This document shows, one piece after another, positions 10,204-32,940 of a stretch of DNA of 64,000 bases; position 1 is the first letter of the stretch; every line of letters starts with the position of its first letter. The notes under the pieces were generated by a model that was not told where the DNA came from, did not search any database, and saw only the letters and a program-made list of their open reading frames with translations. Source of the DNA: Planctomycetota bacterium (lineage in GTDB: Bacteria; Planctomycetota; B15-G4; JADJEK01). The stretch lies in assembly GCA_044225365.1 (NCBI GenBank), contig JBGAIQ010000009.1, positions 96,462 through 160,461 of the forward strand. Direction: 5' to 3'. Both the position numbers and the translations under genes were made by a program.

Positions 10204-10215
10204 GCGTCGTGCGCC

Positions 10216-15723: not shown

Positions 15724-18700
15724 TCAGCTCGCACCCGCCGAGAAGTCGAGCGTGCGCTTCTCTTCTGCGACCTCGAAGGCCTCGACGATGTCGCCGACCT
15801 TGATGTCGTCGTAGCCATCGACCTTGAGACCGCACTCGAGGCCTTCCTTGACCTCGCGCACGTCGTCCTTGAATCGCTTGAGCGAGGCGAGTTTGCCGGT
15901 GTGGACGATGCGACCATCGCGCGTGAGGCGAATCTTCGCGTTGCGCTTGACGATGCCGTCCTTGACGATACAGCCAGCGATCGTGCCGACCTTCGAGACC
16001 TTGAAGATCTCGCGGATCTCGACGTGACCGATGACCGCCTCCTTCTGGATCGGCGACAGCTTGCCTTCCATCGCGGCCTTCACGTCGTCCACCAGCTGGT
16101 AGATGATCTCGTAGGTCCGGATATCGACGCCGCGCTGATCGGCGAGGGATCGCGCCTTGTCGTCGGCGACCACGTTGAAGCCGATGATCGTCGCTTCGGA
16201 AGCGATCGCGAGCAGCACGTCGTCCTCGGTGATGCCACCGAGCGCGTCGCGGATGATCTTGATCTTCACTTCCTTCTTCGACAGCGACTCGAGCTCCTTC
16301 TTCACGACTTCGAGCGAGCCCTTCACGTCGCAGCGGACGATGAGGAGCACTTCCTCGGCCTTGCCGGCTTCGAGGTTCGCGAACAGGTTCTCGAGCGTGA
16401 TGTTGTTGCGCGACGGACCCGTGACGCGGTCCTTGTTCTTCGAATGCAATCGCTCCTCGGCGACCTCGCGAGCCTGCTTCAAGCTCTCGAGAACGAAGAA
16501 CGGCGCCGAAGCGTCCGGCGGGTCGTTGAGGCCGAGCACGTTGACCGGAGTGGATGGCGCCGCTTCGGTGATGCTCGTGCCGTCGTCCGCGATGAGCTTT
16601 CGGATGCGACCGTAGCTCGTGCCCGAGAGCATCACGTCGCCGACGCGGAACGTGCCCTCCTGCACCAGCACCGTCGCGATCGCGCCGAGCTGATCGTCCT
16701 TGCGCGCCTCGATCACGGTGCCGCGCGCCTCGCGCGTCGGGTCGGCCTTGAGGTCCATGACCTCGGCCTGCAACGTGATCTTCTCGAGCAATTCGTCGAT
16801 CCCGCGGCCGGTCGTCGCCGAGGTCTTCGCGACCTGGACGTCGCCGCCCCATGCCTCGACGAGCACGCCCGCGGTGGCGAGTTGCTGCATGACACGGTCG
16901 GCGTTCGCTTCGCCGCGGTCGATCTTGTTGAGTGCCACCACGATCGGGCACTTCGCGGCCTTCGCGTGCTGGATCGCCTCCTCGGTCTGCGGCATGACGC
17001 CGTCGTCGGCGGCGACGACGAGCACGACGATATCGGTCACGTTCGCGCCGCGGGCGCGCATCTCCGTGAACGCCTTGTGACCCGGCGTGTCGAGGAGCGT
17101 GATCTTGTGGCCGGTCGGCGACGTCACGCTGTACGCGCGCATCGACTGCGTGATGCCGCCGGCCTCACCCGCTGCGACGTTCGAGTTGCGAATGCGGTCG
17201 AGCAGCGAGGTCTTGCCATGGTCGACGTGGCCGAGGAACGCGACGACGGGCGGGCGCGGTTGCAGCCGACCGGTTTCCTCGCGGGCCGCGAGCTTCTTGT
17301 CCATCGCATCGACCTTGGCCATCAGCGTCTGTTCGAGGTTCTGCTTCGCGACGATGTTCACTTCGCGATTGCGAGCCGCCGCGACTTCGAGCACGGCCAT
17401 TTCGTTCAACGCGCTGTTCACACCGGCTTCGTGACCGCCGCCGAGAAGGATGCGCAAGATCTCGGAAACCTTTGCGCCGAGCAACGACGAGAGATCGCGC
17501 ACACTGATCGGAACCGCGACTTCGAGCGGACCGGTGGGGACCGGCGGAGCCTGGGGCTTCTTCGCTTTGCGCGGACCGACGCGGCGCGGCGGTCGCCGCA
17601 GACTGTTCGCCGCCTGCCGCAGGCGGATGCTCTGCAGCAGCGGATCGTCCTCGTCGTCCGGATTCCATGCCGCGGAGTCGGAACGTCCGCGGATCCCGCG
17701 TTTCTTCGCGTTCTCCGCTTCGGTGATCGGATCGAGGATCGGACCCCGTCCGGGACCGCGCGCCGCGGCAGCGCCCGCATCGGGGCTCGCGCCCGGCGCG
17801 TTCGTCGTCGTCGGACCCGGAGCGGTCCGCATCTGCCGCTGCCGCTCGAGTTCCTCGCGAGGCAGCTCGATACGACCGAGGATCTTCGCGCCACCCGCCG
17901 GGCGAGAAGGACGCTTGATCGGACTCTGCGGCGCCGCGCCCGTGGCGGCGGTGCCCGCTCCACCCTGCCCGCCCGGCGCGCCGTGCTGGCTGGAAGGATC
18001 GTTCGTGCGAGGCGGCGGCGGAGCCACCGGCCCACCGCGAACGGTGCGCCCGCCCGGGAGATTCGCGCCCGACATCGAACCGAGGGATCCGATCGGTCCG
18101 CGAGCTGCGATCGAAGGCCGCGCCGGCGGCGCGGAGTGACTGGGAGACGGCGGCGCCGTCGAAGGCGATGGCGTACGCGGCGGCGCGGGCGGCACGGGCG
18201 CAGCGGGCGTCACCGCGGCCGCGGCCGGCCGCACGGGCTCGGATGGATGACTCTCCTTCGGCTTCGCCGCGGGCACGTGCGCGGGCGCTACCGCGGGCTT
18301 CTCCGCTTCGGGGGCCACGCTCGCGGGAGCCGCCGGCGGCTCGACGCGCGCGACCGGAGGGGCGGCGCTCTGGGGTGCGGGCGACGGAGGAGCCGTCGGA
18401 GCCGCAGCGACCGGTGCCACGGGCTCGGGGGCACTCACGCTCGAGCTCTCGCTCTCGCTCGAACCTTCGAAGCCACTCTCACCGGGCACGGACTCGTAGG
18501 AGTCGCCATCGCCCTCGGTCGCTTCGCCTTCGTTCTCGGAGGTGCGCACGCGCATGCGGCGCTTGCGCGGCTCCGCCTTCGCGGCGTCGGCAGGAGCGAC
18601 TTCCACGGCCGCGACCGGCGGCGGCGTCGAATCGCCGTGTTCTTCGCGGTAGGCCGCCTTGAGCAGAGCGATCTCGCCGACCGTCAAGGTCGCCGAGTGA

Positions 18701-18833: not shown

Positions 18834-20090
18834 TCACGCGCCTCCTGTCGAGGCGTCGCCAGCGCTTGCGTTCGCGTCCGGTTTGGCCGGGGATTCCGCG
18901 GACGCCGAACCGCTCGTCGCGGAATCGGGCGCCTCGGACTTCGATTCCTTGTCCTCACCGCGCGCGGCGGAGAGTTCAGCGCGGAGCCGGCGTTCGAACT
19001 CGTCGGCGCCGACGGGGCTCGCGGGGGTCGTCGAGGACGACGACTCCGGCGAAGCGTTGCCCGGCGCGACGCCGCCGGTGAGCAGCGCTTCGCGCGCCTT
19101 CTCGACCTCGGCATCGGCCGCACTGCCACGCGGCTCGTCGTACGCAGCCTGCGTCGGGCTCTTGATCTTGATGTCGTAGCCGGTGAGACGCGAGGCGAGT
19201 CGCACGTTCTGGCCCTTGCGACCGATCGCGAGCGAGAGCTGGTCGTCGTTCACGAGCACGTGAGCGATCTGGTTGGCGTCGTCGAGCTCGATCGAGTTGA
19301 TCGTCGCTGGCTTGAGCGCCTGCTGGATGAACTCTTCGGTGTCGTCGCTCCAACGGATGATGTCGATCTTCTCGCCGTTCAACTCGTCGGTGATCGCCTT
19401 GATGCGACTGCCGCGAATGCCGACGCAGGCGCCGATGCAGTCGACGCGCGAATCGATCGAATTGACCGCGATCTTGGTGCGGAAGCCCGGCTCGCGTGCC
19501 ACCGCTCGGATCTCGATCACGCGATCGGAGATCTCCGGCACTTCGAGCTCGAAGAGCTTGAGGACGAGCTCCGGTGCCGCGCGCGAGAGCATGATCTTGA
19601 CCTTCGGGCCGACCTTCTTGACGTCGTACACGATGGCCTTGATGCGGTCGCCCGGGTTGTAGTTCTCGGTGCGCACCTTCTCGTGCTTCGGGACGATGCC
19701 CTCGGCACGACCCAGGTTGACGATGATGTTGCCGAGCTCGATGCGCTGTACCGCACCGGACACGATCGTGTTGACCTTGTGCTCGTAGTCGCCGTAGATG
19801 ACGTCGCGTTCGGCGTCGCGGATTCGCTGGATGATGACCTGCTTCGCCGTCTGCGCGGCGATGCGGCCAAGCTCGGTCATGTTGATGCCTTCGGCTTCGA
19901 ACTCGCCGTCCCAGACATCGACCTTGCCGGATTCACGATCGATCTCGACGGCAAGGCCTTCGCGCTCGCCGTAGCGCTTCTTGACGGCGGTCAGCAACGC
20001 GCTCTCGATCGCTTCGAACAGGATCTCTTTGTCGATATCCTTGTCGCGATGGATGGCGTCGACCAGTCGAATGAGCTCTTCGCCGTTCAT
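18834..20090 (-). CDS. nusA: transcription termination/antitermination factor NusA
   Basis: Start MNGEELIRLVDAIHRDKDIDKEILFEAIESAL at 20090 (CAT at 20088-20090). There is an S1-like region, and KH motifs GACVGIRGSRIKAI and AIGRKGQNVRLAS. The C-terminal tail is low-complexity Ser/Ala/acidic. Confidence 0.9.
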   Translation of the reverse strand: MNGEELIRLVDAIHRDKDIDKEILFEAIESALLTAVKKRYGEREGLAVEIDRESGKVDVWDGEFEAEGINMTELGRIAAQTAKQVIIQRIRDAERDVIYGDYEHKVNTIVSGAVQRIELGNIIVNLGRAEGIVPKHEKVRTENYNPGDRIKAIVYDVKKVGPKVKIMLSRAAPELVLKLFELEVPEISDRVIEIRAVAREPGFRTKIAVNSIDSRVDCIGACVGIRGSRIKAITDELNGEKIDIIRWSDDTEEFIQQALKPATINSIELDDANQIAHVLVNDDQLSLAIGRKGQNVRLASRLTGYDIKIKSPTQAAYDEPRGSAADAEVEKAREALLTGGVAPGNASPESSSSTTPASPVGADEFERRLRAELSAARGEDKESKSEAPDSATSGSASAESPAKPDANASAGDASTGGA

Positions 20091-20310
20091 GGCCTCGGTA
20101 CCGTCCGATCCGTTCGAATCGGCGGCGCTGTCCTTTGGATCAGGTGATGAAAATCCGTCGCTCGCGTCTTCGGATCGCGAAACGACCGTTCGGTGAATGA
20201 CCGAGCGAGCGCACCCTCGGGCTTTCGCCTCGAAGGCCGCTACCCCGCGATTCACCGACCTGCACCCCCGACTCCGGACCACCAGAAACACGACGTACGA
20301 GGCGACCTCC

Positions 20311-20340
20311 AAAAAAAGAAAGTGGGCAGAGCCCACTTTG
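20311..20340 (-). terminator. rho-independent terminator-like hairpin in the nusA upstream region
   Basis: The minus strand reads CAAAGTGGGC-TCT-GCCCACTTT-CTTTTTTT. It has a 9-bp stem (20319-20327 / 20331-20339), a 3-nt loop and a T7 tract (A7 on the plus strand at 20311-20317). A T-run this long is rare in this window. Confidence 0.65.
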
Positions 20341-20523
20341 CGGGGGTACACCTCGTGGTGCAGGCGGCGCTATCGTAAGCCGAGTCGTGAGGCCTTTCAA
20401 TTGCTTTCGCCCTACCGCCCACGCGGCCCGGTAAATAACCGTGAGACCGGGCTGCGTCGAATCGACCGCGATCCAGACTCCCCAAATGCCCAGTCGAAAG
20501 ACCTCTCGAGGCCAAGAACGTAC

Positions 20524-22506
20524 ATGACTGCCCGTTCCAAGCTGTTTCTCGGCCGCGTGGCGCTCGCGGTGTTCGGCCTCGGCACGCTGGGCCCGAGCCC
20601 ACGGGCAGCCGCTCGACAGCACGAAACAGAAACGCCCGTTCCCCCGCCAGCCCAGAAGCCGACGACCCCGGGCCAGGAAAATCCTCGCCGCGCATCCCGA
20701 GACGCGACGATCGAAAGCTTGATCTTCGGACCGAGCGGACTCGTGTCCGATGGCCCCCCCGGTGCCGCGGCCGTCGCGCTCGAAGAGGCTCTCACGGCGA
20801 GCGCACACCGCCTGCGGGCGATCACCGAAGCCTGCCCCCGCCCGCTCGGGGCGATCGGTCTCGACTTCGCGAGGGCTGCAGCGACCCGTCTCGACCCCAC
20901 TGCGCGACGCATCGCGACGGAACTTGCGGCGCGGGTGACTCCCTCCGACGCCGAGGACTGGCTGCTCGCGGGAGTCTCTCCCTGGCCTCCCGACGCGGGC
21001 GCCGCGACTCCCGTTCCGAGTCTGCCGCTCCCCGTGACGGACGTCCTCGACGCACTCGGTCGCGTCGGCAGCGAACACTCGAGCCACGCGATCGCCCGCT
21101 TCCTCGCCGCGAAGGACCCGCAGGTCGCGTACGCGGCGAAGAGCGCCGCCCTGCGCATCACGCCGCGCCTGCTCGCCCTCGGAAAGTCCGAGGAGGCCGC
21201 GCTCGCGCTGCGCGCCTTCGTCACCGGCGATCCGCGCGATCTCGTCCTGCGCGAGAATCTCGCCGTCGTGCTCGGCGTCTACCTCGAGCAGCCCGACGAG
21301 GGCCGCGCCGTCCTCGCGGCGTACCCCGAGACGGACGCGAGCCGCGGCCCGCTTTCGCACGACTTCGCCGAACTCGAAGTCGCACGCGCGATGATCGATT
21401 TCTTCGAAGGAGCGTCGGAGGGTGAACGCCACGCACTCGAACGACTGACGAGCGCCCGCGCGCGCGTGCTCGCCGCTCCGCCAGCGGTGGAAGCCGCGGC
21501 CGAGACTTTCGTGCGCGTCGAACTGTGTCGCGCGATCGTCCTGCTCGCGCAAGCGCAGCCCGATGTCGAAGCCGCCGCAAGAGCGATCGCGCTCGCCGTG
21601 GAGCACGCACCGCACGAGAACTCGCGCTACCGCTGCGACGACGCGCTCCATGGGCCGGCAGGACCGCGTGCCTGGCTCGAACGATTGCGGCGAATCGGTC
21701 GCCCCGAGATCCGTCGCGCGTTCTATCACGCGATGGCGAAGGCCGCGCACGCCGCGGATCCCGCCGCTTCTCCCGACGCCGAGATCCCGGCGCGCAGTTG
21801 GTCCGCGCTCTTCGCCGCGTCCGCCGCTCTCGACGACGGCGATCTCGACAGCGCGATCGAGAACGCGAGCGAACTCATCACGCGGATGCAGGGCTCGTCG
21901 GCGTGGTACGACCGCACGATGCTCGGAGAGGCCGAGTACGTGAAGGGAATGGCAACGCTCTTCCGGGGCGATGCGAAGGCAGCGTCCACGCTGCTCGAAT
22001 CCGCCTTCGCGCGGATCGAGGAGCTCGCGCGCGAGGAGGTCGACTCGTGGGCGCAGGACCGCATCGAACGCAACGCGCTCGTCGAAGCGGGCGCGGCGCC
22101 GATGCGCACGTCGCTCGCCTCGACCGAGGCGAGGATGGCACGCAGCGTCGTCGAAGCGGCGCTCGCGGCGAAGGATCGCAAGACGGCCCTGCGCTACGCC
22201 GCCGCCGCGGTCGCGGCCGATCCTTTCGATGACGCGTCGGTCGCACTCGAACTCGCCCTCGCCACGCCTGCCGAATCGAACCCGCGCGGCACGCGGGAGC
22301 GCGGCATGCGCGCCCTTTCGACCTTGCCCCGGTCGTCGGGGACGCTGCTCGATCTCGCTCGGCTCGCTGTCGCGCTGGGGGATGCGAGAGACGCTCAGAC
22401 GCTCTTCGAGCGACACGTCGAATGGAATGCCCTCACGCCTGCGCGCAAGGCGATCGAAGAGGGCCGCCGCGCCCGCGACCCTCTGCTCGCCACGATCGGG
22501 CGCTGA
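20524..22506 (+). CDS. secreted Ala-rich helical-repeat protein (hypothetical)
   Basis: ATG at 20524 gives [23 protein letters not shown] (signal-like). Third codon positions are G/C-rich on this strand, while the opposite-strand 852-aa ORF is Arg-rich. It has HEAT/TPR-like helical segments and no catalytic motif that I recognise. Confidence 0.6.
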
Positions 22507-22582
22507 GCTGCGGAAAACGCGACGAGTGGCGCGGGCGAACCGTCGCGGGATAGAATGCGCGGTCGTTCCCAGGAGCCGAGAC

Positions 22583-22789
22583 GTGAAGATTCGAATCGTC
22601 CTCAACGGACGCGTAAGAGAGATCGACGACACGACGACGATCGCGCAGCTCCTGCTCACCCTCGAGCAGAAGCCCGCGCTGCTCGCGGTCGAGCGCAATC
22701 AGCGCATCGTGCCGAAGGCGCTCCATGCGACGACCTGCCTCGCCGATGGCGACCAGATCGAGATCGTCACGTTCGTGGGCGGAGGCTGA
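22583..22789 (+). CDS. thiS: sulfur-carrier protein ThiS
   Basis: 68 aa from GTG 22583, with AGGAG at 22571-22575. It ends ...[10 protein letters not shown] (C-terminal Gly-Gly) and sits immediately upstream of thiG. Confidence 0.8.
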
Positions 22790-22790
22790 G

Positions 22791-23606
22791 ATGACGACGC
22801 AGGACGCAGCGACCGAATTCGCGATCGAACCGCTCGTGGTCGGTCCGTACACGATGAAGTCTCGACTCATCGTCGGCACCGGGAAGTACCGAGATTTCGA
22901 ACAGATGGAGCAGGCGATCGAGGCGTCGGGCGCCGATTGCGTGACCGTGGCGCTGCGCCGCGTCGACCTCTCCCAGAAGGAGACGATCCTCGATCATCTC
23001 GATCGGAAGAAGATCGTCCTCTTGCCGAACACCGCGGGCTGCTACACGGTCGAGGACGCGCTGCGCATCTCCCGCCTCGCGCGCGAGATGCTCGACACCA
23101 CGCTCGTGAAACTCGAAGTGATCGCAGACCCGGTGACGCTCCTGCCCGATCCCATCGCGACGCTCGAAGCCACCGCGGTGCTCGTGAAGGAAGGCTTCAC
23201 GGTGATGGCGTACACCAGCGACGATCCCGTGCTCGCGCGGCGGCTCGAGGCCGCGGGCGCGGCCGCCGTGATGCCGCTCGGATCCGCGATCGGTTCGGGG
23301 ATGGGCATTCTCAATCGCCACAACATTCGCCTGATCCGCGACACTTTGAAGTGCCCGGTGATCGTCGATGCCGGAGTGGGCACGGCGTCGGACGTGACGG
23401 TCGCGTTCGAACTCGGCGTCGCCGGTGTGCTGTTGAACACCGCGATCGCGCACGCGCAGGATCCCGTCCGCATGGCGCGGGCGATGCGGCTCGCGACCGA
23501 AGCCGGCATCCAGGCCTTCCGCGCAGGACGCATGCCGGCGAAGGCGTACGCGAGTCCGTCGTCGCCGACCGAGGGTCTCATCACGGGCGGGAGCAAGACG
23601 GCGTGA
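22791..23606 (+). CDS. thiG: thiazole synthase ThiG
   Basis: ATG at 22791, 1 nt after the thiS stop. Motifs are [41 protein letters not shown] and [10 protein letters not shown]. Confidence 0.95.
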
Positions 23607-24457
23607 CGGGCGTGGAAGACGAACTCGATTCCGGGGCCGCGGCGGATCTCGACGCGAAGGAAGCGCGACTGCGTAGAGCGGTGCGGGAGCTCGAAGGCGG
23701 CGTCGTCGTCGCGTTCTCTGGCGGCGTCGATTCGGCGCTCCTGCTCCTCGTCTGCGCGGACGAGCTGAAGGGCCGGGTGCTCGCGGTCACCGCCGAGTCG
23801 CCGTCGTTCCCGCAGCAGGATCGCCGCGACGCCGCACTCGTCGCGAAGCAGCTCGAGGTCGCTCACGTCAGCGTCTCGACGCACGAGATGAACGATCCGC
23901 AGTACGTCCAGAACGACGCCTCGCGCTGCTACTTCTGCAAGCACTCGTTGTTCGAGACCCTAGAGCCGATCGCGCGCTCCTCCGGCCTTCGCCATCTCGC
24001 GTTCGGCGCCAACCTCGACGACGAAGGCGATTATCGACCGGGCCATCGCGCCGCGGCGGAGTTCGCCGTCAAGGCGCCGCTGCTCGATGCGGGATTGCGA
24101 AAGGCCGACGTCCGCGCGCTCGCGAAGAAGCTCGGACTCTCGATCTGGAACAAGCCCGGCTCGGCGTGCCTCGCCTCGCGGATCCCCTACGGAACGGCGA
24201 TCGATCCCGCCGTCCTGGCGCGCGTCGACGCCGCGGAGAATGCGCTGCGGGAGCTCGGATTCCCGCAACTGCGCGTGCGGCATCATGGCGACGTCGCGCG
24301 TCTCGAGCTCGATCCAAGCGACATCGCGCGTGCGGCGGAATCGCGCGAGGCGATCCACGCGGTGTTGCGCGCACAGGGCTGGCGCTATGCGACGCTCGAT
24401 CTGCTCGGCTATCGCACGGGCAGTCTCAACGAAGCGCTGCCGCGACGCGAGACCTGA
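23603..24457 (+). CDS. LarE-like PP-loop ATP pyrophosphatase (putative sulfur transferase)
   Basis: GTG 23603 overlaps the thiG stop (GTGA). It has the PP-loop [14 protein letters not shown] and three Cys in RCYFCK (CxxC) and [12 protein letters not shown]. The C-terminus reads [13 protein letters not shown]. Confidence 0.8.
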
Positions 24458-24481
24458 ACGATCGGCGACCCGCGTCGCCCA

Positions 24482-25765
24482 TCAGCCGCGGGTGCGGCGC
24501 AGGACGTCCGCGAGCGAGCGTGCCGAACGATAGCCGACGAGCTTCTCGACGATGCTTCCGTCCTTGTCGATGAAGACCATCGTCGGCACGATGGCCGCGT
24601 TGTGCCGCGCGGCGAGCGCGCGTTCGAGCGCCGGATTCAGTCGCACGCAGACGAAACGAGACCGCAAGAGCTCCGACACTTCGGCGTCCTGCAGAGTTCG
24701 CTGATCGAGATCACGCGCGATCTTCGACCAATCGGCGGTATAGAGCACGCAGAGCGTCTTCTTGTCCCTCTTCGCGAGCTCCTCGCCCTTGCCGATGTCG
24801 GTGAGCCATTCCACCGGCTTGTCGGTGCGGGGGCGCGGTGGCTCGAGCTGGAGCGGGTCGGAGTCGAGCAAGGCCTGCTGCGCGGAATCGACGCTCTCCT
24901 CGCCGACGTCGACCCGCCGCGCCTCCGGCATGAGACTCGTGATTCGATACGGAATGCCGCCGAACTGGATCGGAACGGTGCATGGAACGAGTTCGAGGCC
25001 CTGCGGGAGTGGCGCGCCTGGCGCGAGTTCGATCAGTGCCCAGCGTGCCGAGCCGACGGCGTACATCGCCGTACCGCTGTCGTCATAGAGCACGACCCGC
25101 GCGTCCTTGCCGAGCAGCTTCGCGGTTCCTTCGCGCCAGTTCGCATCGATCACGAAGAGCTTCGTCATCTCCGACGGATCGTTGGAGCGCGGGAGCCAGG
25201 AATAGAACGTGAATCGGCACGCGTCCTCGATCCGGTCCGAACCGCCGGACGTCTCAACCCTCGCGCCGAAGTAGACGGTGACGGGGACCGCGGTGAATTC
25301 GACGTAGTCGGTCTCGCGCTGCGGATCCTTCACGACGACACCCTTCACGGGCTCTTGTTCATCGCTCCCGGAGAAGGATTGATCGCGATCGCGATCGATC
25401 CACAGCAGGTCGTAGCGATGCGTCGAGGGATTCGATTGGTCGAGGATGATCGTCTGGCGCCCACCGCGGCCGAAGCGCACGATTCCGTAGAGCGGCGTGT
25501 CGCACCGGAGCTGCGGGAGTTGCTTGATCTCGAGCATCGGTTTCTGAGCGAGCGCGATGGCGGTCGGCGAGCGCGAGACGAACGGACGCTCAGCCGGGTT
25601 CCCGGCCACGAGTTCGAGGGGGAACGACGTCTTCTTGACGAGGTTTCCGGCCGTGATGCCAACCTGGTTCGGATCGTCCTGCTGCGGGTCGGGTTGTTGG
25701 GCGAACGCGCGGCTGAAGCACAGCGCGCCGAAGGCCACGGCGAAGGCGAACGGGAAACGAAGCAT
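24482..25765 (-). CDS. secreted protein with C-terminal thioredoxin-fold domain lacking CxxC
   Basis: Start MLRFPFAFAVAFGALCFSRAFAQ at 25765 (CAT at 25763-25765). The C-terminus KTLCVLYTADWSKIARDL...IVPTMVFIDKDGSIVEKLVGY is thioredoxin-like, but YTADWSK replaces the usual WCxxC. Confidence 0.6.
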   Translation of the reverse strand: MLRFPFAFAVAFGALCFSRAFAQQPDPQQDDPNQVGITAGNLVKKTSFPLELVAGNPAERPFVSRSPTAIALAQKPMLEIKQLPQLRCDTPLYGIVRFGRGGRQTIILDQSNPSTHRYDLLWIDRDRDQSFSGSDEQEPVKGVVVKDPQRETDYVEFTAVPVTVYFGARVETSGGSDRIEDACRFTFYSWLPRSNDPSEMTKLFVIDANWREGTAKLLGKDARVVLYDDSGTAMYAVGSARWALIELAPGAPLPQGLELVPCTVPIQFGGIPYRITSLMPEARRVDVGEESVDSAQQALLDSDPLQLEPPRPRTDKPVEWLTDIGKGEELAKRDKKTLCVLYTADWSKIARDLDQRTLQDAEVSELLRSRFVCVRLNPALERALAARHNAAIVPTMVFIDKDGSIVEKLVGYRSARSLADVLRRTRG

Positions 25766-25829
25766 TCTCGAACTCTCTCTTCGAAGGAAGATCAGATTCT
25801 TCGGCGATCGACGGGCTCGCGCAAGAGCC

Positions 25830-27032
25830 CTACTTCTGGAAGATCGGCAAGTACTGCTGCGGCATGAGGAGGATGAGGCACGCGGACGCCGTGGAATAGA
25901 CTCGACCGTAGTCGCTCTCACCGATCGAGCCCTTCGGATCCTGGCTCTCCGCGAACTCGTCGACGATCGCCGTCTGCCACGCGCGGAACAGACTGGGATC
26001 ACGGTACAGGTAGTAGGCCTCTGCCGCATAGAGCCGCGCGTAGAAGGGATGAGTATCGCCGAGAGTGCGCAGGCTGGGATTCAGAACCGGATCCTTGATC
26101 TGCATGTACTCGATGCCGCGGTCGATCACGTCGCTGGCATAGTCGCCCGTGGCGTTGAGGGTCGCGATGGCGGCAGCCGTGAGTCCGTAACTCACCTGCT
26201 CCTTCATCATCTTGCTGTAGCAGAAGGCCCCGCTCGGCCGCTGGAGCTCCCTCACGTACTTCACGGCGTCGTCGATGCATTGCTTGTTGACGTAGATTCC
26301 GACGTCGCGTGCCGCTCGCAGGGCCTGGATCATCGTGATGGTGACCGACCCCTCGTGCTCGGCGTCTCCGGGCTCGTAATACCAGCCGCCATCCTTCGTC
26401 TGCGACCATTCGATGAGCTGGACGGCGTCGACGAGGATCCGGCGCAGCTCGGCCATCTCGCCGCGCACGCGCTTCACCGAGCCGTCCCCGTAGGCATCGT
26501 CGATGCGGTAGGTGCCATAGGCCTCGGCGAGGGCGAGGGTCGCGTACCCGTGGCCGTGCATCTTCGACGTCCCGTCACCGGGGAACGAGAAGTAGATGTG
26601 GTTGACGTCGATGTCCTCGGCCTTGTCCTCACCCAGAATCCGATGCGCGGTGAACGTCGTGGCGTTGCCGCACTTCATGAGGAACTGGATCGCCTTCTGC
26701 ACGTTCTCGCGATACGGCCCGCGGCCGAGCGTCGAGCCACCCGCCATGAACGCGAGCGCACTGAGGGCGGTCACGGCGACGGGAGCCGACGTCACTCCGG
26801 TATCGGACTTCGCCTTGTTGAACTGACCATCCTCGGCCTGTTGCTTCGCGAGCCACTCGAGCCCGCGCTGGCCGATCTCGAACGCGCGATCCTCGACCTC
26901 GCGCGTGGCGTGCTGGGAATTCCCGTCCGATCCGAAACCGGCGCCGCTCGGGCGGCACATCGCCTTCGCCGCGACGAGGATTGCCGCGACAGCGAGGACA
27001 GTGCTTACCGGGATGGCGCGGGCCGGGATCAT
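25830..27032 (-). CDS. prenyltransferase/squalene-cyclase-like alpha/alpha-toroid (QW-repeat) protein, paralogue 2
   Basis: The N-terminus is hydrophobic. QW-type motifs are LAKQQAEDGQF, WSQTKDGGWYYEP and ELQRPSGAFCY. It ends QQYLPIFQK, like the paralogue at 32941-34092. The start overlaps the upstream stop by 1 nt. Confidence 0.65.
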   Translation of the reverse strand: MIPARAIPVSTVLAVAAILVAAKAMCRPSGAGFGSDGNSQHATREVEDRAFEIGQRGLEWLAKQQAEDGQFNKAKSDTGVTSAPVAVTALSALAFMAGGSTLGRGPYRENVQKAIQFLMKCGNATTFTAHRILGEDKAEDIDVNHIYFSFPGDGTSKMHGHGYATLALAEAYGTYRIDDAYGDGSVKRVRGEMAELRRILVDAVQLIEWSQTKDGGWYYEPGDAEHEGSVTITMIQALRAARDVGIYVNKQCIDDAVKYVRELQRPSGAFCYSKMMKEQVSYGLTAAAIATLNATGDYASDVIDRGIEYMQIKDPVLNPSLRTLGDTHPFYARLYAAEAYYLYRDPSLFRAWQTAIVDEFAESQDPKGSIGESDYGRVYSTASACLILLMPQQYLPIFQK

Positions 27033-27742
27033 CAGGGCTGCTTGCTCTTGTTCCGCGTCCGGTAGTACTGCAACAGGAGCTCTCGATAGCGGTCCGGGAA
27101 CTCGTTCTGCGAGAGCTTCTGGAACATCTCCTGGACCTTCGGCGGCAGGACGCCCCAGCGGCCGGCGACGTTCTCGCGCTGGTACTTCTCCTTCTCCGAC
27201 GGCGGATCGACGCCATCCGCCTTCTGCTGATCCGGCTTGCTCTTGTCCGGCCCACCATCCTTCGGCTGGCCCGATTTCTCCTCGGGCTTCTGCTTGCCCT
27301 CGCCCTTGTCCTTCTCGCCTTGCTGCTTCAGCTTGTCGACCTCGGGATCCTTGCCCCGCTCGTCCTGCTGTTTCTGCTGGGGAGAGTTCTTGGGATCGGG
27401 CTCGCCCGACCCCTTGCCGCCGCTGTTGGACTGCCGCTTCGCCATGCGGACGAGTTCCTCGATGTCCGTCACGGCCTGCGACTGCTTGGATTGGATGTCC
27501 TTCAGCAGCTTGTCGAGATCGGCTTTCACCTGCTCGATCCTCGCGGCGGCATCCTTGGGCGCATCCTTCGCAGCCTGCAACAGCAGCTCGTCGATCTCGC
27601 CCATCTCCTTACGGATCTTGGCTTGGAGCTCCTTCGCCTTGATCTCGTCGGCTTGTCCCCCGTCCTGCGCGACCGCGCGCTGCGCGCTCACGCCCGTGAG
27701 GATCGCCGCGACGCAGAGGAATCGCTGGATGCGCGTGTTCAT
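27032..27742 (-). CDS. secreted Lys/Gln/Glu-rich protein with conserved-looking C-terminal WGxLPP...YRELLLQYYR motif
   Basis: MNTRIQRFLCVAAILTGVSAQRAVAQ is signal-like. The middle is low-complexity KQ-rich. The C-terminus reads RWGVLPPKVQEMFQKLSQNEFPDRYRELLLQYYR. An ATGA overlap links it to the upstream gene. Confidence 0.6.
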   Translation of the reverse strand: MNTRIQRFLCVAAILTGVSAQRAVAQDGGQADEIKAKELQAKIRKEMGEIDELLLQAAKDAPKDAAARIEQVKADLDKLLKDIQSKQSQAVTDIEELVRMAKRQSNSGGKGSGEPDPKNSPQQKQQDERGKDPEVDKLKQQGEKDKGEGKQKPEEKSGQPKDGGPDKSKPDQQKADGVDPPSEKEKYQRENVAGRWGVLPPKVQEMFQKLSQNEFPDRYRELLLQYYRTRNKSKQP

Positions 27743-30525
27743 TTGCCACCCGGGCCCTTCTCGTCCTTCACTTCGACCGGCGGCCCCTGCGAGTCGTCGA
27801 TCATGCCGCGGAAGAGTTTCGTGATCTCGGAGTGCTGTAGTCCGAGGCGGGTCAGGCGGTCACGCGAAATCGCGTCGAGACCACCCTCCGCATTGGCGCC
27901 CTGGAGCCGCATGAAGACGTCGAGACGCTTCATCATGCTCTCCTCCATTCGCTTCAACATGAGCAACTCGGCGACGGGCGGGATCAAGGGCTGCTTCTGT
28001 TGCTGCTGCGGCGAATTCCCGTTCTGGCCGTCCGGCGGCTGGCCCTCCTCGCCCTCCTTCGGCTTGAGCTTCGCCTGCTTGCGGCGCTCGACTTCTTCAT
28101 CGAGGGTCGCGAGAAGCGTGTCGTAGCGATCGAGGATGTCGCGCGCGATCGACTGCGTGAAGTCGTCGGTGCGGTAGGGAGCGGTCCCGAGCAGTTCGGT
28201 CACTCGATCGAAATCGCCGTCGTTCTGCTCGAGCGCGAACGTGAAGACCGTCGCTCCATCCTCGCGCAGCTTCGACACGACCTCCTGATTCTGCACCTTC
28301 AGTTCTCGCGACTTCTGCGCGAGCTTCTTCGACGTATTCTGTCCGACTCGCGACAGCTTGCCCTTGCTCTGGCGCTCGAGTTCGAGCTCCTCGGTCTTGG
28401 CTACGACCTCACCCTGGCCCGTACGAAGGAGGGTCAACTGCTCCTTCACCTTGAAGAGCAACTCCTCCTGGCGAAGGTTCTGGTACTTGTCCTTCTCCTG
28501 CTTCAGTTCCTGCTCGGCCTTCTTCAAGAACTTCTCGGCTTCTTCCTGGCGCGGGGTTGCTTCCTCGCCCTGCTCCTTCTTGAGGCTCGATGCCGCCTGA
28601 TCCATCTTCGATGCGGCGGCGGAGAGCGACTGCTCGCGTTCGGGCTTCTTCTCGTCGCGGATACGATCCATCAGCTCTTTCAGCTTCTTCTCGAGCTCCC
28701 GCTGACGGCTCTCGAGGTCGTCGTACTTCTGCTGCTGATCCGCGGCCGAAGGGGAGTCCTTCGCGGACTGCTCGGCTTCCGACTGCTGCTGGTCGAGCTC
28801 CTGCGAGGCCTTCTCGAGTTGTTCACCCGCCTCGCTCTGGCTCTTCGCTGCTTTCTCCTGCTGGCCGCTGCGCATCGATTGCGCCGCCTGCTGCATCGAC
28901 TGCGCCGCCGACTCCACGGCCTTCGAGGCTCCCGACGGCGAATCCTTCTTCATGGCCGCGTCGAGGCGGGAGAGCGTCTTCGCGAGAGCCTCGGCCTGCT
29001 GGCTCGCGTACTCCTGCTTCGCGGCGAGGGAGTCGCTCCGTTCCTGCGCAGCCTTCTCGGCACCGTCGATCGCGTTGCGCGCCTCCTTCATCTTCTCGAG
29101 CGCATCGCGTTGCGCCGCGGCCGCGCCTTCGAGGTCGGGCTTCTCCATCTCGGAACCGGCTTCGTTCGCCGCTTGCGCGCTCTGCTCGAGCGCCGCCGCC
29201 GCGTCGCTCGCTCGCTTCTGCGCCGCTTGGTTTCGTTCGGCGGCCTGCGGATCGCCCGCACTCTTCGAATCGCGTGAGTCCTGCGTCGGCAACTTCTCCA
29301 CCCGGGAAGCAGCTTCTGCGAGCTTCTTCGCTTCGTCACCGAGTTCGCGTTGCTGGTCGGCCGCCTTCGCGTCGGTCGCCGACTTCGAGAGCGCCTTGTC
29401 GAGCTGCGCCTTCGCGGCATCGACGTTCTCGTTCTCGGCGTTCGCGAGCTGCGCCGCCGTGGACGCGTCGCCGTTCTTCTCGGCGTCGCGCGCCGCCTTC
29501 ATCCGCTCCGAAGCACTCGCGAGTGCTTTGGCGAGGGCTTCGCGGGCGGTTGCGATCTCGGCGGCGTTCGCCGGATCCTTCGCGCCGTTCTCGCCGTTCT
29601 TTGCGTCGGCCGCGGTCGCCTCCTGTGACAACGCGTCCTTCGCCGCCGCGAGTTGTTCGGCAACCTTCTTCATCGCGTCGGCGTCGCCCGCGGCCTTCGA
29701 GTCGTCAGATGCGTCGGCCTTGGACTTCGGGGAGCCGTCGGCGGAGGCTGCCTCGGCCTTCTTGGCAAGGTCCTTCGCGAGAGCCTTCTGGGCTTCGATC
29801 GCGGCCTGTGCAGCGAGGAATCCGGGAGCCGCCCGCTCGAGCGAGTTCTCGGTCGCTGCGAGCGCGGCATTCTGCTTCGCGATCAGGTTCTCCAACTGGT
29901 GCTTCAGAGCGGCGAGTGCCGAGTCCTTCGACTGCGACTCGCTCGTGTTCTCCTTCGCCAGCTTCTGTTCGTTCTCCTTCAGGTCCTTCAACTGACTCTT
30001 CGCCTGCTCGGCGAGAGCCTTCGGATTCGTCGCCAGAACGGTCGTCTCGTTCGTCAGCTTCTGCTGCTCGCTCCGCACCTGCGCAATGTCGCGGACCGCT
30101 TGTTCGAGCTTCTTGGCTTCGGCGTCGAGCGAATCGAAGTCCGTTCGATCGAGGAGGATCGCGTACACGGACTCGAGATCCTTGAGCAGGTCCTCCTGCT
30201 CCTTCACCGAGGCGAACTCCTGGCGGTCGAGACTCGACCCGATCTTCTCGATCGTTCGGGTCAGCTCGCGCTTCTTGATCTCGGCGATCGCATTGTCGAG
30301 CAGGTCGGCGCTGTGCTGCTTTCCCTCCGCCCGCAGCCGCTTCGACAGCGACTCCATGTTCTTCTTCGTCGACTCGATGCGGCTCTTGAGGTTCTGCTGC
30401 TCCTGCGAGATGCGTTTGACGTCGGTCGCGGCGTCGGTCTCATCGCTCGCCCACGAGCGTGCGAACGGCAGTGCACAGAGCGACAGCGAGAGGAGACACG
30501 GAGCGAAGTGGAATCGGCTTCTCAT
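27739..30525 (-). CDS. 928-aa secreted Ala/Lys/Glu/Gln-rich coiled-coil protein
   Basis: Start MRSRFHFAPCLLSLSLCALPFARSWA at 30525 (CAT at 30523-30525). Nearly the entire length has heptad-like AKE/Q-rich composition. The C-terminus has LIPPVAELLMLKRMEESMMKRLDVF. Confidence 0.65.
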   Translation of the reverse strand: MRSRFHFAPCLLSLSLCALPFARSWASDETDAATDVKRISQEQQNLKSRIESTKKNMESLSKRLRAEGKQHSADLLDNAIAEIKKRELTRTIEKIGSSLDRQEFASVKEQEDLLKDLESVYAILLDRTDFDSLDAEAKKLEQAVRDIAQVRSEQQKLTNETTVLATNPKALAEQAKSQLKDLKENEQKLAKENTSESQSKDSALAALKHQLENLIAKQNAALAATENSLERAAPGFLAAQAAIEAQKALAKDLAKKAEAASADGSPKSKADASDDSKAAGDADAMKKVAEQLAAAKDALSQEATAADAKNGENGAKDPANAAEIATAREALAKALASASERMKAARDAEKNGDASTAAQLANAENENVDAAKAQLDKALSKSATDAKAADQQRELGDEAKKLAEAASRVEKLPTQDSRDSKSAGDPQAAERNQAAQKRASDAAAALEQSAQAANEAGSEMEKPDLEGAAAAQRDALEKMKEARNAIDGAEKAAQERSDSLAAKQEYASQQAEALAKTLSRLDAAMKKDSPSGASKAVESAAQSMQQAAQSMRSGQQEKAAKSQSEAGEQLEKASQELDQQQSEAEQSAKDSPSAADQQQKYDDLESRQRELEKKLKELMDRIRDEKKPEREQSLSAAASKMDQAASSLKKEQGEEATPRQEEAEKFLKKAEQELKQEKDKYQNLRQEELLFKVKEQLTLLRTGQGEVVAKTEELELERQSKGKLSRVGQNTSKKLAQKSRELKVQNQEVVSKLREDGATVFTFALEQNDGDFDRVTELLGTAPYRTDDFTQSIARDILDRYDTLLATLDEEVERRKQAKLKPKEGEEGQPPDGQNGNSPQQQQKQPLIPPVAELLMLKRMEESMMKRLDVFMRLQGANAEGGLDAISRDRLTRLGLQHSEITKLFRGMIDDSQGPPVEVKDEKGPGGK

Positions 30526-30569
30526 GGTGTGCCTTACGACCGATTGCGCGCGGCGGGGTTCCATCGTTG

Positions 30570-32906
30570 TCATTCTCTCTTCAGCGACTGCTTGGTGCGC
30601 TGATTGAGCGACCGTTGATCCTCGACCAGATTGCGAAACGTCGCAACGATCTCTTGAAAACTCTCCCACTCATCGAGGCGGGCGATCAAGGCGTCGAGCC
30701 GTTCGAGCGCCCGTTTCTCCTCCTCGAGGGCTTGCCGCAAGGCCAAGGGCCGCTGCGCAGGATCGACGGCGAGCCGTGCATCGGACAGCGCTTTCGCGGC
30801 CGCCGGCGAATGCAGCTCGGCGACGTCGATCACGCAATGGATCATCTCGAAGATGCGACCGAGGATCTCGAGTCGACCGTACGCACTCGCGGCGTTCGCT
30901 TCGACGAGCGGTCGCCACAGCTTCGGATCGAACCCGTCCAATTGGGAGCTGCCGCGCTTCTTCTCGAGCATCACCGCGATCAATCCTTCGACGCCCGAAC
31001 TCGTGTCGAGCCGATTGAAGAGGTACTCCTCGAAGATCTCCGCGAACTCTCGGCACTGCTTCAGCGACCGTGCGGTCACCTGGTTCTGGCCCACCTCGAG
31101 CGTGGCGACGTCATCGGCCGTCGCGCCGGTCACCCCTTCGGCCTGGTCGAACTCCTTCAGGATCACTTCGAGTCGCTCGATCTTCTCCTGCTGGAGAGCG
31201 CGCAAGGAGCCGACCTCCTCCTTGGTGCGAGTCTGACGCTCCGCCAGGAGTCGCTGTTTCTCGCCGGGCGCGACGATGTCGACGCGCCGCTCCTCGATCG
31301 CCGTCTCGTTGCCGCCGGTCGAGGGCTTGCCGTCCTTGCCAAGGACGATGCCGTCGAAATTGTCCTTGGCCGCGACGCGATAGACGAGCGACTCCCCCGC
31401 CGCCATCGCGCGCGGCCCGCCTTCGTGCTCGAACACCTTCTGCTTGAGGTCGAGGTGCTCGTAGACGAGGACGCGACGCGATTCGTCCGGACCCTTGCCG
31501 ATCGGGAAGTCGATCTTCAGCGGGGTCGCACCGCCAAACGGCTTCATCTCGATCGCGAGGCTCGTGAGTCCGTAATCGTCGTCGGCGGCGATCCGCAACG
31601 GAACGATGCCGTTCGGTGTCACGTCGACGTCGGCGCGGCCGGGCTCGAGGACTCGCACGGTCGGACCGCGATCCTTGACGGCGAGGACCGAGTAGGTCGG
31701 GGGTTCGAGATTCTTGAACCCGATGTCCGAGACCAGCTCGATGGAATAGGCGCACGACTGCGTGATGTCGAACGACGCTCGCAGCTTCCGCGAATTCGAA
31801 TCGGCGACGAGTAGAAGCGGCAGTGCCGCGATCCCGCTGTCGAAGACGAGGCGACCGGCGGCCACCGCATCGGCGGTCTGGACGTCGATCGTGACGTGTG
31901 TCCCGACGAGTCCTTCCACGTCGCCTCGTGGTTCGACCCGCGGTCCGAGACCGGTGTAGGCCGGGAACTGGAGCTGCGACGTGACGCTCGCGACCGCGGG
32001 CGGCGTGAAGATCTCGACTTCGACTTCGCGGCCGCCGCCATCATCGTCGCCGCCGACCGGTCGGAACGTGAAGGGCGCGCGCACCGATCGGAACCGGCCC
32101 GCCCACTCACCATTGCCCGTCGACGACAGGGCGATCTTCGAATCCCCGCTCTCGCGCGACTCGGTCCGGACCTCGACGAGCTCGGGGTTCTCGCCGTTCG
32201 CCGTCACTGCGACCGGCAGACTCGCGCCACGAGCGATGCGGACGCGAATCGGGCGCTTCTCGTTCGAGGAGTCCTTCGCGTCGTATTCCACGACGTAGTG
32301 CGTGCCGTGCTCGGGGAACTTCACCGCGAGCATCGTGCGTTGCGGCCATCGTGCGCTCCCGCCGAGTAGGCGGCGGAAGAAGACGTCGGCGAGCGACGAC
32401 TGCGTCGCCACGAACGTGATGACGCCGAGGACGAGCACGGCCGCCGCCGCGCCGAGGCGCTGCAGGTGCCGATACTCGAAGATCGTCGAAAGGGGCAGGG
32501 TGGCCCGGATCGCCGAAGTCTCGCGCCGCAAGTCGGCGACGAGCTCGGGCGACACGTTGCGCTGCGGATCGATCGCCTCGCCCTCGAGTTCGAGGACCGC
32601 GAGCAGACGGCCGTCGAACTGCGGGAAGCGCCGCTCGATCGCACACGCGACATCGCGCTCGGTCGGCCGCTTCTTCAGGGGGTAGACGATGCCGCGATAT
32701 ACCTGCACGGCGAGGCCGGCGACGACGACGAGCAGCAGCACGATGCGAACCGGCGCGGGCAGGGCGAGCGACCGATCGAGGACGTAGAGGGCGGCGAGCC
32801 CGCAGCATACGAAGGCGACGACGCGCGCGATTCCATACAGCAGCGCGAGCTTGAGCCAGCGGCCCGCGAGACGCGAGAATTCGGCGCGCAGTTCGTTCAG
32901 GTCCAT
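30570..32906 (-). CDS. 778-aa membrane protein (N-terminal TM hairpins, large ectodomain, C-terminal helical region); DUF4175-like by recollection
   Basis: Hydrophobic segments are WLKLALLYGIARVVAFVCCGLAALYVL, VRIVLLLVVVAGLAVQVY and LGAAAAVLVLGVITFVAT. A beta-rich middle and a helical C-terminus follow. The family name comes from memory of similar architectures and was not searched. Confidence 0.55.
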   Translation of the reverse strand: MDLNELRAEFSRLAGRWLKLALLYGIARVVAFVCCGLAALYVLDRSLALPAPVRIVLLLVVVAGLAVQVYRGIVYPLKKRPTERDVACAIERRFPQFDGRLLAVLELEGEAIDPQRNVSPELVADLRRETSAIRATLPLSTIFEYRHLQRLGAAAAVLVLGVITFVATQSSLADVFFRRLLGGSARWPQRTMLAVKFPEHGTHYVVEYDAKDSSNEKRPIRVRIARGASLPVAVTANGENPELVEVRTESRESGDSKIALSSTGNGEWAGRFRSVRAPFTFRPVGGDDDGGGREVEVEIFTPPAVASVTSQLQFPAYTGLGPRVEPRGDVEGLVGTHVTIDVQTADAVAAGRLVFDSGIAALPLLLVADSNSRKLRASFDITQSCAYSIELVSDIGFKNLEPPTYSVLAVKDRGPTVRVLEPGRADVDVTPNGIVPLRIAADDDYGLTSLAIEMKPFGGATPLKIDFPIGKGPDESRRVLVYEHLDLKQKVFEHEGGPRAMAAGESLVYRVAAKDNFDGIVLGKDGKPSTGGNETAIEERRVDIVAPGEKQRLLAERQTRTKEEVGSLRALQQEKIERLEVILKEFDQAEGVTGATADDVATLEVGQNQVTARSLKQCREFAEIFEEYLFNRLDTSSGVEGLIAVMLEKKRGSSQLDGFDPKLWRPLVEANAASAYGRLEILGRIFEMIHCVIDVAELHSPAAAKALSDARLAVDPAQRPLALRQALEEEKRALERLDALIARLDEWESFQEIVATFRNLVEDQRSLNQRTKQSLKRE

Positions 32907-32940
32907 CGGTTGATCGGGTCCGTCTCGTGGTCCATCGGGC

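Follow-up and report, generated by a model that had tools for sequence, protein, structure and literature searches.

A predicted iron-sulfur-type LarE encoded behind thiS and thiG in a single planctomycete lineage

We analyzed a 64 kb stretch of DNA (the window) in which three genes form a single unit on the + strand: thiS (22583..22789, +), encoding a 68-aa sulfur carrier protein that ends in VGGG; thiG (22791..23606, +), encoding a 271-aa thiazole synthase; and larE (23603..24457, +), encoding a 284-aa PP-loop ATP-dependent sulfur insertase of the predicted [4Fe-4S] (CxxC...C) type. ThiS scored 62.8 bits against PF02597 and 74.6 bits against the equivalog TIGR01683 (cutoff 37.45) and has a C-terminal GGG, and ThiG scored 348 bits against PF05690 and is 47% identical to E. 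coli ThiG. The open reading frames and the sequence place the GTG start of larE (23603) over the TGA of thiG (23604-23606) as GTGA, exactly as an earlier note on this DNA had described. The only alternative in-frame start is GTG 23612, 5 nt past the thiG stop, so that thiG and larE are tightly coupled either way.

A conserved gene of 660 aa with no Pfam match lies upstream (20524..22506, +; gene call in locus L001, offset 19836). It has a syntenic homologue of roughly 30% identity in seven sister loci, and faint TPR matches occur in sister loci. The gene ends 76 nt before thiS, and the search for + strand terminators gave nothing there; it may be co-transcribed with thiS-thiG-larE, and it is not implicated in sulfur chemistry. 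No + strand terminator-like sites were found within or between thiS, thiG, and larE, in a terminator and promoter search whose counts were not above those of shuffles. In addition, no TPP riboswitch was found upstream of thiS, either at Rfam gathering thresholds across the whole window or at E ≤ 1 over 19800-24800, the sole matches being two at chance level.

The third protein matched the 'LarE' equivalog TIGR00268 with 312.1 bits (cutoff 150) over model positions 2-259 of 259. It also matched Lactiplantibacillus plantarum LarE (PDB 5udq) over residues 14-281 with E 9e-50, and PDB 8cnz with E 8e-16. The names thiS, thiG, and LarE-like given in the earlier note are borne out by the TIGR01683, PF05690, and TIGR00268 matches. 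An AF2 model of the protein (pLDDT 92.2, pTM 0.88) was searched with Foldseek, and all 50 PDB matches listed were L. plantarum LarE (best E 2e-27), with target-normalised TM of 0.77-0.91 and about 36% identity. No signature of the ThiF or ThiI type was detected in the protein (no PF00899 or PF02568 match at E ≤ 0.001).

The motifs that the earlier note had pointed out were readily located. The PP-loop SGGVDS, the ATP-binding motif of LarE (PMC9283937), occupies residues 39-44 (23717..23734, +) and is invariant in an alignment of 96 LarE sequences. Two predicted ligands of a [4Fe-4S] cluster, C109 and C112, form a CxxC in RCYFCK (23927..23938, +) that aligns with RCYNCK of 8cnz and is near-invariant in the LarE family. 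The third predicted ligand is C189 in SACLASR (24167..24169, +), which lies one residue beyond the site of Cys176, the sacrificial residue of L. plantarum LarE: in the alignment, C176 corresponds to A188 here, and C189 to S177 of L. plantarum. Such a one-residue shift has been described, and the CXXC-C motif, which binds the catalytic [4Fe-4S] cluster in Thermotoga maritima LarE, is carried by most LarE homologues (PMC9283937). This agrees with the association of the cysteine triad with [4Fe-4S]-dependent sulfur transfer that the earlier note had drawn. Furthermore, S192, R224, and R226 (24176..24280, +) align with S180, R212, and R214 of L. plantarum LarE, for which roles in binding the phosphate of P2CMN, the known LarE substrate, are reported (PMC9283937), and are proposed to act likewise here. 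All nine members of the clade described below keep these residues, as do 95% or more of the 87 LarE sequences outside it.

The same conservation extends over the whole protein. All 41 positions that are near-invariant in the 87 other LarE are kept in each of the nine clade members, including the PP-loop, R108-C109-x-x-C112-K113, C189, S192-R193, and R224/R226, and only about seven clade-specific substitutions were found (nine against 87 sequences), none of them at a family-invariant position. Judged by family score, fold, and residues, the third gene is an orthodox LarE of the iron-sulfur type with a predicted cluster and a predicted LarE substrate, and nothing in the protein indicates a new role in thiamine synthesis.

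We surveyed the distribution of this arrangement. A scan of a genome collection with a single LarE protein yielded five loci, and the wider survey combined a metagenome scan with a LarE alignment and 12 exact-protein contig look-ups. The order thiS-thiG-larE occurs in nine species-level planctomycete-like loci, whose LarE are 56-68% identical to that of the window, and an overlap of 4 or 8 nt between thiG and larE is available in all nine (at NusA identities down to about 75%). Their LarE form a clade that was monophyletic in 56 of 60 neighbor-joining bootstraps and has no long stem; its sister, L015, has no thi link. The loci lie within one conserved block of about 20 kb, with a shared neighborhood of nusA, an unknown gene, thiS, thiG, larE, a thioredoxin-like gene (lost in two of the nine), and a prenyltransferase-like gene, and synteny holds even for genes at only about 30% identity. 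As the nine loci are one clade in one conserved block, we counted them as a single evolutionary event. Another group of LarE loci, represented by L039, was considered as a sister of the clade and rejected: it stood near the clade in the first neighbor-joining tree, but of the 56 replicates in which the clade was monophyletic, just 8 had it inside the smallest split enclosing the clade, and it was treated as an independent event.

The link between thiSG and larE, which the earlier note had read as functional, is thus conserved among nine related loci, but thiG was upstream of larE in none of the 63 LarE loci outside the clade with at least 900 nt of upstream sequence. An HMM of the ThiS of the clade, run against all ORFs of the other LarE loci, gave no matches. 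Among the matches listed, the LarE relatives outside the clade form a near-equidistant crowd at about 50% identity, and the nearest contexts are larE-larB-larC (L016, 51% identity), larB-larC-larE (L017, 52%), and larB-larE-larC (L020, 53%). Outside the clade, a solitary larE is the norm: larB or larC was adjacent in only 7 of 40 loci with at least 1.5 kb available on both sides. We found no report of a coupled thiS-thiG-larE unit in the searchable literature. What is new here is the context, namely a translationally coupled unit that has been stably retained throughout a deep planctomycete lineage.

The statement in the earlier note that the window contains no thiF, thiI, or larABC also stood. 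Pfam scans of about 40 ORFs of the window found no ThiF, ThiI, Lar_N, AIRC, or Ni_insertion, and six-frame tblastn extended the coverage to several further ORFs that are short or ambiguous (at about 11.1-12.2 kb and 62.3-63.4 kb). In the tblastn searches, E. coli ThiF, MoeB, ThiI, ThiH, ThiE, and ThiC and two LarB/LarC probes were used against the window and eight sister loci (185 kb, E ≤ 0.01), and only thiS and thiG were matched; larA was sought by Pfam scans alone. Across the 64 kb of the window and 121 kb of sister loci, the searches turned up no larA, larB, or larC and no gene for another known nickel-pincer user; the pathway context of larE is thus assumed rather than seen. Nor does the lack of larB and larC nearby say much, given that either is adjacent to larE in just 7 of the 40 other loci; both are presumably located elsewhere in the genomes of the clade. 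Since thiF often lies apart from thiSG, failing to find it in 64 kb is uninformative. At the genome level, larB, larC, and larE are reported to co-occur in about a quarter of genomes (PMC11796402).

The most likely reading, which we consider rather probable, is that thiS, thiG, and larE are co-transcribed and that the third gene encodes an orthodox iron-sulfur LarE that came to lie behind thiG through one rearrangement in the ancestor of this single planctomycete lineage. Its position would have persisted because the whole block of about 20 kb stayed syntenic. C109, C112, and C189 would hold the [4Fe-4S] cluster, with a non-core sulfide carried on its open iron; this sulfide would displace AMP to give a thiocarboxylate, and the thiolation would be performed twice to yield P2TMN, the precursor of the nickel-pincer cofactor. 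Besides the lack of nickel-pincer genes in the sequence covered, it counts against this reading that a thiG/larE overlap is available in nine of nine loci down to 56% LarE identity, while the thioredoxin-like neighbor has gone from two of them; this is a stability somewhat beyond what drift alone would call for. The earlier note had instead suggested that this enzyme is a sulfur source for ThiS thiocarboxylate or thiazole formation. On such a reading, LarE would adenylate the ThiS C-terminus and thiolate it from its cluster in place of ThiF and/or ThiI, or would otherwise bring sulfur to ThiG. Such a role would suit the tight and conserved coupling to thiG, as well as the lack of thiF, moeB, and thiI matches in 185 kb around the operons, of which the thiF result carries little information for the reason given above; the path from carboxylate through acyl-adenylate to thiocarboxylate in LarE would also be formally equal to the conversion of ThiS-COOH to ThiS-COSH. 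Nevertheless, we regard it as highly improbable, given that the protein keeps the P2CMN phosphate binders together with every other family-invariant residue and shows hardly any clade-specific substitution, that relatives at 51-53% identity sit in larBCE clusters, and that linkage to thiSG is limited to a single monophyletic, syntenic lineage and occurs in no other LarE lineage surveyed. Moreover, we know of no PP-loop enzyme that adenylates a protein C-terminus. It is also quite unlikely, if slightly less so, that an enzyme of the LarE fold thiolates some other small carboxylate, neither P2CMN nor ThiS. The lack of any nickel-pincer pathway gene in the accessible sequence (window and sister loci) would fit this, as would the many solitary LarE homologues, with neighbors such as GcpE, GTP cyclohydrolase I, and a redoxin-FMN_bind gene. 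Conversely, the score is at equivalog level, the P2CMN-binding and catalytic residues are fully conserved, a solitary larE is common in our sample, and larB, larC, and larE are reported to occur together at the genome level in about a quarter of genomes (PMC11796402).

A more tenable alternative, although still a doubtful one, keeps LarE orthodox and places ThiS on the donor side: ThiS-COSH, made by a ThiF/MoeB E1 encoded elsewhere, would dock by its C-terminal Gly-Gly-COSH at the open iron site of the cluster in LarE and supply the non-core sulfide for P2TMN, so that ThiG and LarE would share ThiS as their carrier. If there is any functional link, precedent favors this direction, from ThiS-COSH to LarE, which is the reverse of that in the earlier note: the thiocarboxylate of TtuB attaches to the unique Fe in the [4Fe-4S] cluster of TtuA, where it gives up its sulfur (PMC7138817), and TtuA has been used as a mechanistic model for LarE (PMC9283937). 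The start-stop overlap available in every clade locus is in line with such a link, and other LarE neighborhoods also hold sulfur-transfer genes. A NifS cysteine desulfurase is directly downstream of larE in L043, L067, and L098 and about 1 kb away in L019/L027/L029; an E1 of the MoeB/ThiF family is directly upstream of larE in the L039 group; and a SAMP1/MoaD-like gene of the ThiS family, found by a search for ORFs of 55-115 aa ending in Gly-Gly, lies about 1 kb from larE in L021/L022. Altogether, 3 of 41 LarE lineages, the planctomycete clade included, have a gene of a ubiquitin-like sulfur-carrier system within about 1 kb, against a rough, post hoc expectation of 0.2-0.4. The two lineages outside the clade hint that the link to ThiS is perhaps not accidental. 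However, all three associations come from one narrow lineage apiece; the arrangement in L021 is convergent, at a distance of two genes, and resembles a cluster of the CysO/ThrC type; no ThiS-like ORF lies close by in the L039 group; and the HMM of the clade's ThiS found nothing near any other LarE. In addition, the clade LarE show no sign of adaptation relative to the 87 other sequences, no link between LarE and a sulfur carrier protein was found in the literature searched, and the only demonstrated donor is IscS with cysteine, which worked with T. maritima LarE in vitro when sulfide did not (PMC9283937). Overall, it seems unlikely that the physiological sulfur donor of [4Fe-4S] LarE is a ubiquitin-like protein thiocarboxylate (here ThiS-COSH), be it in this clade or, more tentatively, in the lineages whose larE adjoins an E1 of the MoeB/ThiF type or a carrier resembling MoaD/SAMP.

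The protein itself is nothing new, being a further LarE of the iron-sulfur type, the commonest form according to the literature. Its gene neighborhoods across the family suggest candidates for the sulfur donor, namely NifS (four lineages), an E1 like MoeB/ThiF (one lineage), a MoaD-like carrier (one lineage), and, in the planctomycete clade, ThiS. If ThiS-COSH does feed LarE, a relay of the TtuB-to-TtuA type would extend from tRNA thiolation to cofactor biosynthesis, a second such relay and one acting on a small-molecule cofactor precursor, and one carrier would supply the synthesis of both the thiamine thiazole and the nickel-pincer cofactor. If it does not, the locus calls for caution in annotation, in that no thiamine role should be assigned to larE from its operon.

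Among characterized proteins, L. plantarum LarE (5udq and related entries) shares the fold, the PP-loop, and the substrate-phosphate residues with the protein described here. It has no CxxC and consumes its Cys176 as the sulfur source; the planctomycete protein has Ala at this position together with a three-Cys cluster site, and a catalytic, non-sacrificial mechanism is therefore expected. PDB 8cnz, annotated as 'NAD_synthase domain-containing protein', is presumably the archaeal [4Fe-4S] LarE of Methanococcus maripaludis. It is far more distant than L. plantarum LarE by E-value, but all three Cys align (RCYFCK/RCYNCK and SACLASR/DTCMATR). T. maritima LarE, as described in PMC9283937, resembles our protein in having an SGGxDS PP-loop, a CXXC...C triad with the third Cys shifted by one residue, the Ser/Arg/Arg set for the P2CMN phosphate, and a matching length and domain layout. 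It differs in that a non-essential fourth Cys beside the triad is Ala188 here, and in that the gene described here stands behind thiS-thiG and not with lar genes. The ThiF/ThiI route of E. coli likewise turns an ATP-activated carboxylate into a thiocarboxylate, but ThiF is an E1-like Rossmann enzyme and no PP-loop protein, and ThiI provides a rhodanese persulfide. TtuA/TtuB of Thermus thermophilus (PMC7138817) also combines a PP-loop ATPase and a three-Cys [4Fe-4S] cluster with an open Fe, which is predicted here. TtuA is paired genetically with TtuB, a ThiS-like thiocarboxylate donor and a sulfur carrier of the ubiquitin-like Gly-Gly kind, as larE is with thiS in this clade by gene adjacency. 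TtuA is, however, a tRNA 2-thiolase of a different PP-loop family, whereas the locus described here encodes a bona fide ThiS as the carrier, with thiG next to it.

The larE gene under study lies in a compact unit on the forward strand of the window, whose G+C content is 65.8%. thiS (22583-22789, +) encodes 68 aa with the C-terminal end VGGG and matches PF02597 and the TIGR01683 equivalog model. A single base separates its stop from the start of thiG (22791-23606, +; PF05690, 348 bits), which is followed by larE (23603-24457, +; 284 aa), whose GTG start overlaps the thiG stop as GTGA, as the earlier note described. The only other in-frame start is a GTG at 23612, 5 nt past the thiG stop, and a start further downstream is discounted because the N-terminus of L. 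plantarum LarE aligns from residue 14. We found no TPP riboswitch before thiS and no terminator-like site on the + strand breaking up the three genes. The larE stop is 24 nt from that of a convergent thioredoxin-like gene (24482-26029). A 660-aa gene without a Pfam match (20524-22506, +) lies 76 nt upstream of thiS; its N-terminus resembles a signal peptide in the translation read by eye.

The third gene had been called LarE-like, correctly so: its protein scores 312 bits against the LarE equivalog model TIGR00268 (cutoff: 150) and contains the SGGVDS, RCYFCK and SACLASR motifs reported for it. It matches L. plantarum LarE over residues 14-281 (E = 9e-50) and 8cnz (E = 8e-16), the latter with all three Cys, those of the CxxC and the distal one, in alignment. 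The interpretation of the CxxC...C triad as a [4Fe-4S]-type LarE pattern agrees with T. maritima LarE, in which the three Cys of CXXC-C, a motif present in "most LarE homologs", hold the catalytic [4Fe-4S] cluster, and the third Cys shows a "single residue shift" relative to L. plantarum LarE (PMC9283937). The window protein shares this shift: Cys189 comes one residue after Ala188, which aligns with L. plantarum Cys176. In the alignment, S192, R224 and R226 are the counterparts of L. plantarum S180, R212 and R214, the proposed binders of the phosphate of the LarE substrate P2CMN. An AF2 model from 24 homologues had a pLDDT of 92.2, and all 50 of the Foldseek PDB matches listed were LarE structures (best E = 2e-27). 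Sequence, cluster site, substrate site and fold thus identify the third protein as a real LarE, and we infer its probable cluster binding, substrate and sulfur donor by homology.

Approximately 40 window ORFs were scanned against Pfam. Besides the genes already mentioned, the window contains cysS, a CBS-domain protein, rbfA-DUF503-infB-nusA, prenyltransferase/SQHop-like genes, DUF4175 proteins, a PQQ-repeat protein, a ClC channel, enolase, DJ-1/PfpI proteins, a HEAT-repeat protein, Cu/Zn SOD, a beta-CASP protein, a glucose/sorbosone dehydrogenase family (GSDH) protein and a kynureninase-like gene. A 1363-aa RHS-repeat protein (953-5044, -) adjoins a 1229-aa Ser/Thr kinase-AAA_16-TPR protein (5097-8786, -), and the gene for the latter also borders the syntenic block in two sister loci (L008 and L009). 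An aerotolerance-operon-like set of MoxR AAA ATPase, DUF58, BatA/VWA and VWA/GATase1-like genes occupies 40874-47622 (-) and is followed on that strand by long genes of the DUF4175, PQQ-repeat and prenyltransferase-like kinds (25830-38951); these downstream genes recur in sister loci, where the MoxR/BatA set falls beyond the available sequence. None of the scanned ORFs was ThiF, ThiI, LarA, LarB, LarC, ThiC, ThiE or a cysteine desulfurase. Six-frame tblastn of the window and eight sister loci, 185 kb of sequence altogether, using E. coli ThiF, MoeB, ThiI, ThiH, ThiE and ThiC together with two LarB/LarC probes, returned thiS and thiG as the sole matches. The claim that the window lacks thiF, thiI and larABC therefore holds, by Pfam and, for ThiF, ThiI and LarB/LarC, also by tblastn.

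The closest database relatives of the protein are 56-75% identical, those that carry a name being planctomycete MAG proteins with a LarE annotation. We inspected nine distinct loci carrying such genes (the window, equal to L001 and L002, plus L003, L004, L008, L009, L011, L013, L099 and L100), with LarE identities to the window of 56-68%. The thiS-thiG-larE order occurred in 9/9, and each offers a start for larE with a 4- or 8-nt overlap onto the thiG stop; the automatically called start in L099 lies 8 nt past that stop instead. Synteny extends over the entire neighbourhood and takes in divergently and convergently oriented genes whose functions are unrelated; identities are approximately 75% for NusA, 70-77% for ThiG and only about 30% for the 660-aa and thioredoxin-like proteins. 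In all seven sister loci whose sequence reaches far enough upstream, the 660-aa gene occupies the same place (identity only ~30%), and its L011 homologue is called as overlapping thiS. In a neighbor-joining tree of 96 LarE sequences, the nine proteins formed one clade (monophyletic in 56 of 60 bootstrap replicates). Its sister is the solitary larE of L015 (protein P0046), overlapped by a stop/start-coupled redoxin/AhpC-FMN_bind gene (L015:10942-11985). One clade and a wholly syntenic neighbourhood point to a single ancestral event that was retained; repeated selection for the arrangement is not shown.

The comparison beyond the clade took in another 87 LarE loci, 44-56% identical (L005-7, L015-18 and 80 metagenome loci), as well as L101/L102. 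The thiSG-larE adjacency, conserved throughout the clade, did not extend beyond it: thiG was near larE in none of the 63 loci having at least 900 nt upstream, and an HMM of the clade's ThiS found no matches in non-clade loci. At 51-53% identity, larE occurs in canonical clusters (L016, larE-larB-larC; L017, larB-larC-larE; L020, larB-larE-larC). Where at least 1.5 kb of sequence flanked larE on each side, larB or larC adjoined it in only 7 of 40 non-clade loci; solitary larE is thus usual, and the missing lar genes in the window carry little weight. Across genomes, larB, larC and larE occur together in roughly a quarter, and in ~15% of those without larA (PMC11796402). Nickel-pincer users beyond the LarA family are now known, and some aldo/keto reductases (NphT family) are reported as nickel-pincer enzymes (PMC13524815). 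Aldo/keto reductase genes (PF00248) a few kb from two lar clusters (L016:8007-8876, -; L017:15073-15990 and 15992-17035, -) would agree with that report. In six loci (L030, L032, L037, L042, L046 and L063), larE is preceded on its own strand by gcpE/ispG (PF04551, 488 bits; e.g., L032:1190-2299), which encodes a [4Fe-4S] enzyme and stops 33-69 nt before larE; the IspG proteins share 66-82% identity with that of L032. The solitary larE encoding P0029 (55% identical) is stop/start-coupled to a two-domain GTP cyclohydrolase I-like gene (L101:4215-5285).

A neighbor census covered 41 LarE lineages (60% single linkage). A NifS-type cysteine desulfurase gene lay directly or closely downstream of larE in four: it begins 6-18 nt past larE on the same strand in L043 (2902-3417, cut by the contig end), L067 (5994-7160; TIGR03402, 588 bits) and L098 (7835-9001), and ~1 kb downstream in the L019 group (L019, L027 and L029). 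Such a placement is in line with the IscS-dependent supply of sulfur published for [4Fe-4S] LarE. In another lineage, a MoeB/ThiF-family E1-like adenylyltransferase gene (L039:9151-9996, +; PF00899, 278 bits; NF004281, 289 bits, cutoff 266), whose product shares ~41% identity with MoeB and ThiF of E. coli, directly precedes larE (10007-10834) on the same strand, an FGGY sugar kinase following. Six contigs share this arrangement (L039, L052, L057, L061, L074 and L077) and, being 89-96% identical, count as one lineage; the neighboring PMT mannosyltransferase and TAP-like hydrolase suggest an actinobacterium. In one more lineage (L021/L022), a convergent SAMP1/MoaD-like ThiS-family gene with a Gly-Gly end (L021:4006-4314, -; NF041918, 61.8 bits, cutoff 60) and an adjoining ThrC-like PLP enzyme gene (4357-5697, -) lie ~1 kb from larE, beyond an FAA-hydrolase gene; the pair probably represents an amino-acid sulfur pathway that depends on a carrier.

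The earlier note proposed that LarE delivers sulfur for ThiS thiocarboxylate or thiazole formation, generating ThiS-COSH in place of ThiF/ThiI. The chemistry is conceivable, as both reactions proceed from carboxylate through acyl-adenylate to thiocarboxylate, but the LarE genes surveyed outside the clade lack a neighboring thiG and relatives at 51-53% identity sit in lar clusters. When the nine clade sequences were compared with 87 others, all 41 positions conserved in at least 95% of the latter were kept in every clade member. Some seven clade-specific positions (V27, G33, C51, D73, F134, V170 and L236) and the replacement of the common E115 by Ser or Ala fall at no family-invariant site, and the stem branch is not elongated. 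Residue conservation and a normal stem argue against a switch of substrate from nucleotide to protein C-terminus. The gene order is confirmed, whereas the functional inference to thiamine is not supported, by either residue conservation or loci outside the clade, and we regard ThiS-COSH formation by LarE as very improbable. We rather lean towards an ordinary [4Fe-4S]-type LarE that would make P2TMN, the dithiolated precursor of the nickel-pincer cofactor, and would be co-transcribed with thiSG owing to a lineage-specific rearrangement. The clade's larE should not be annotated as a thiamine gene.

Conversely, the LarE cluster could receive its sulfur from ThiS-COSH, which we consider doubtful. 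The census lends this idea some color: counting the planctomycete clade, 3 of the 41 lineages had a gene of a ubiquitin-like sulfur-carrier system no more than ~1 kb from larE. The rough expectation is 0.2-0.4 (taking some six genes of this kind in a genome of ~4000 genes, and 2-4 neighbor slots); as this estimate is post hoc and uncorrected, the excess counts as a lead rather than a result. We found no literature joining LarE, a sulfur carrier protein and the nickel-pincer, and did not find an earlier report of the thiS-thiG-larE context, which offers a testable suggestion as to what supplies sulfur to iron-sulfur LarE enzymes in vivo. The precedent is TtuA, a PP-loop enzyme with a [4Fe-4S] cluster, whose donor TtuB-COSH binds the unique Fe of that cluster and is desulfurised there (PMC7138817); TtuA has already been taken as a mechanistic model for LarE (PMC9283937).
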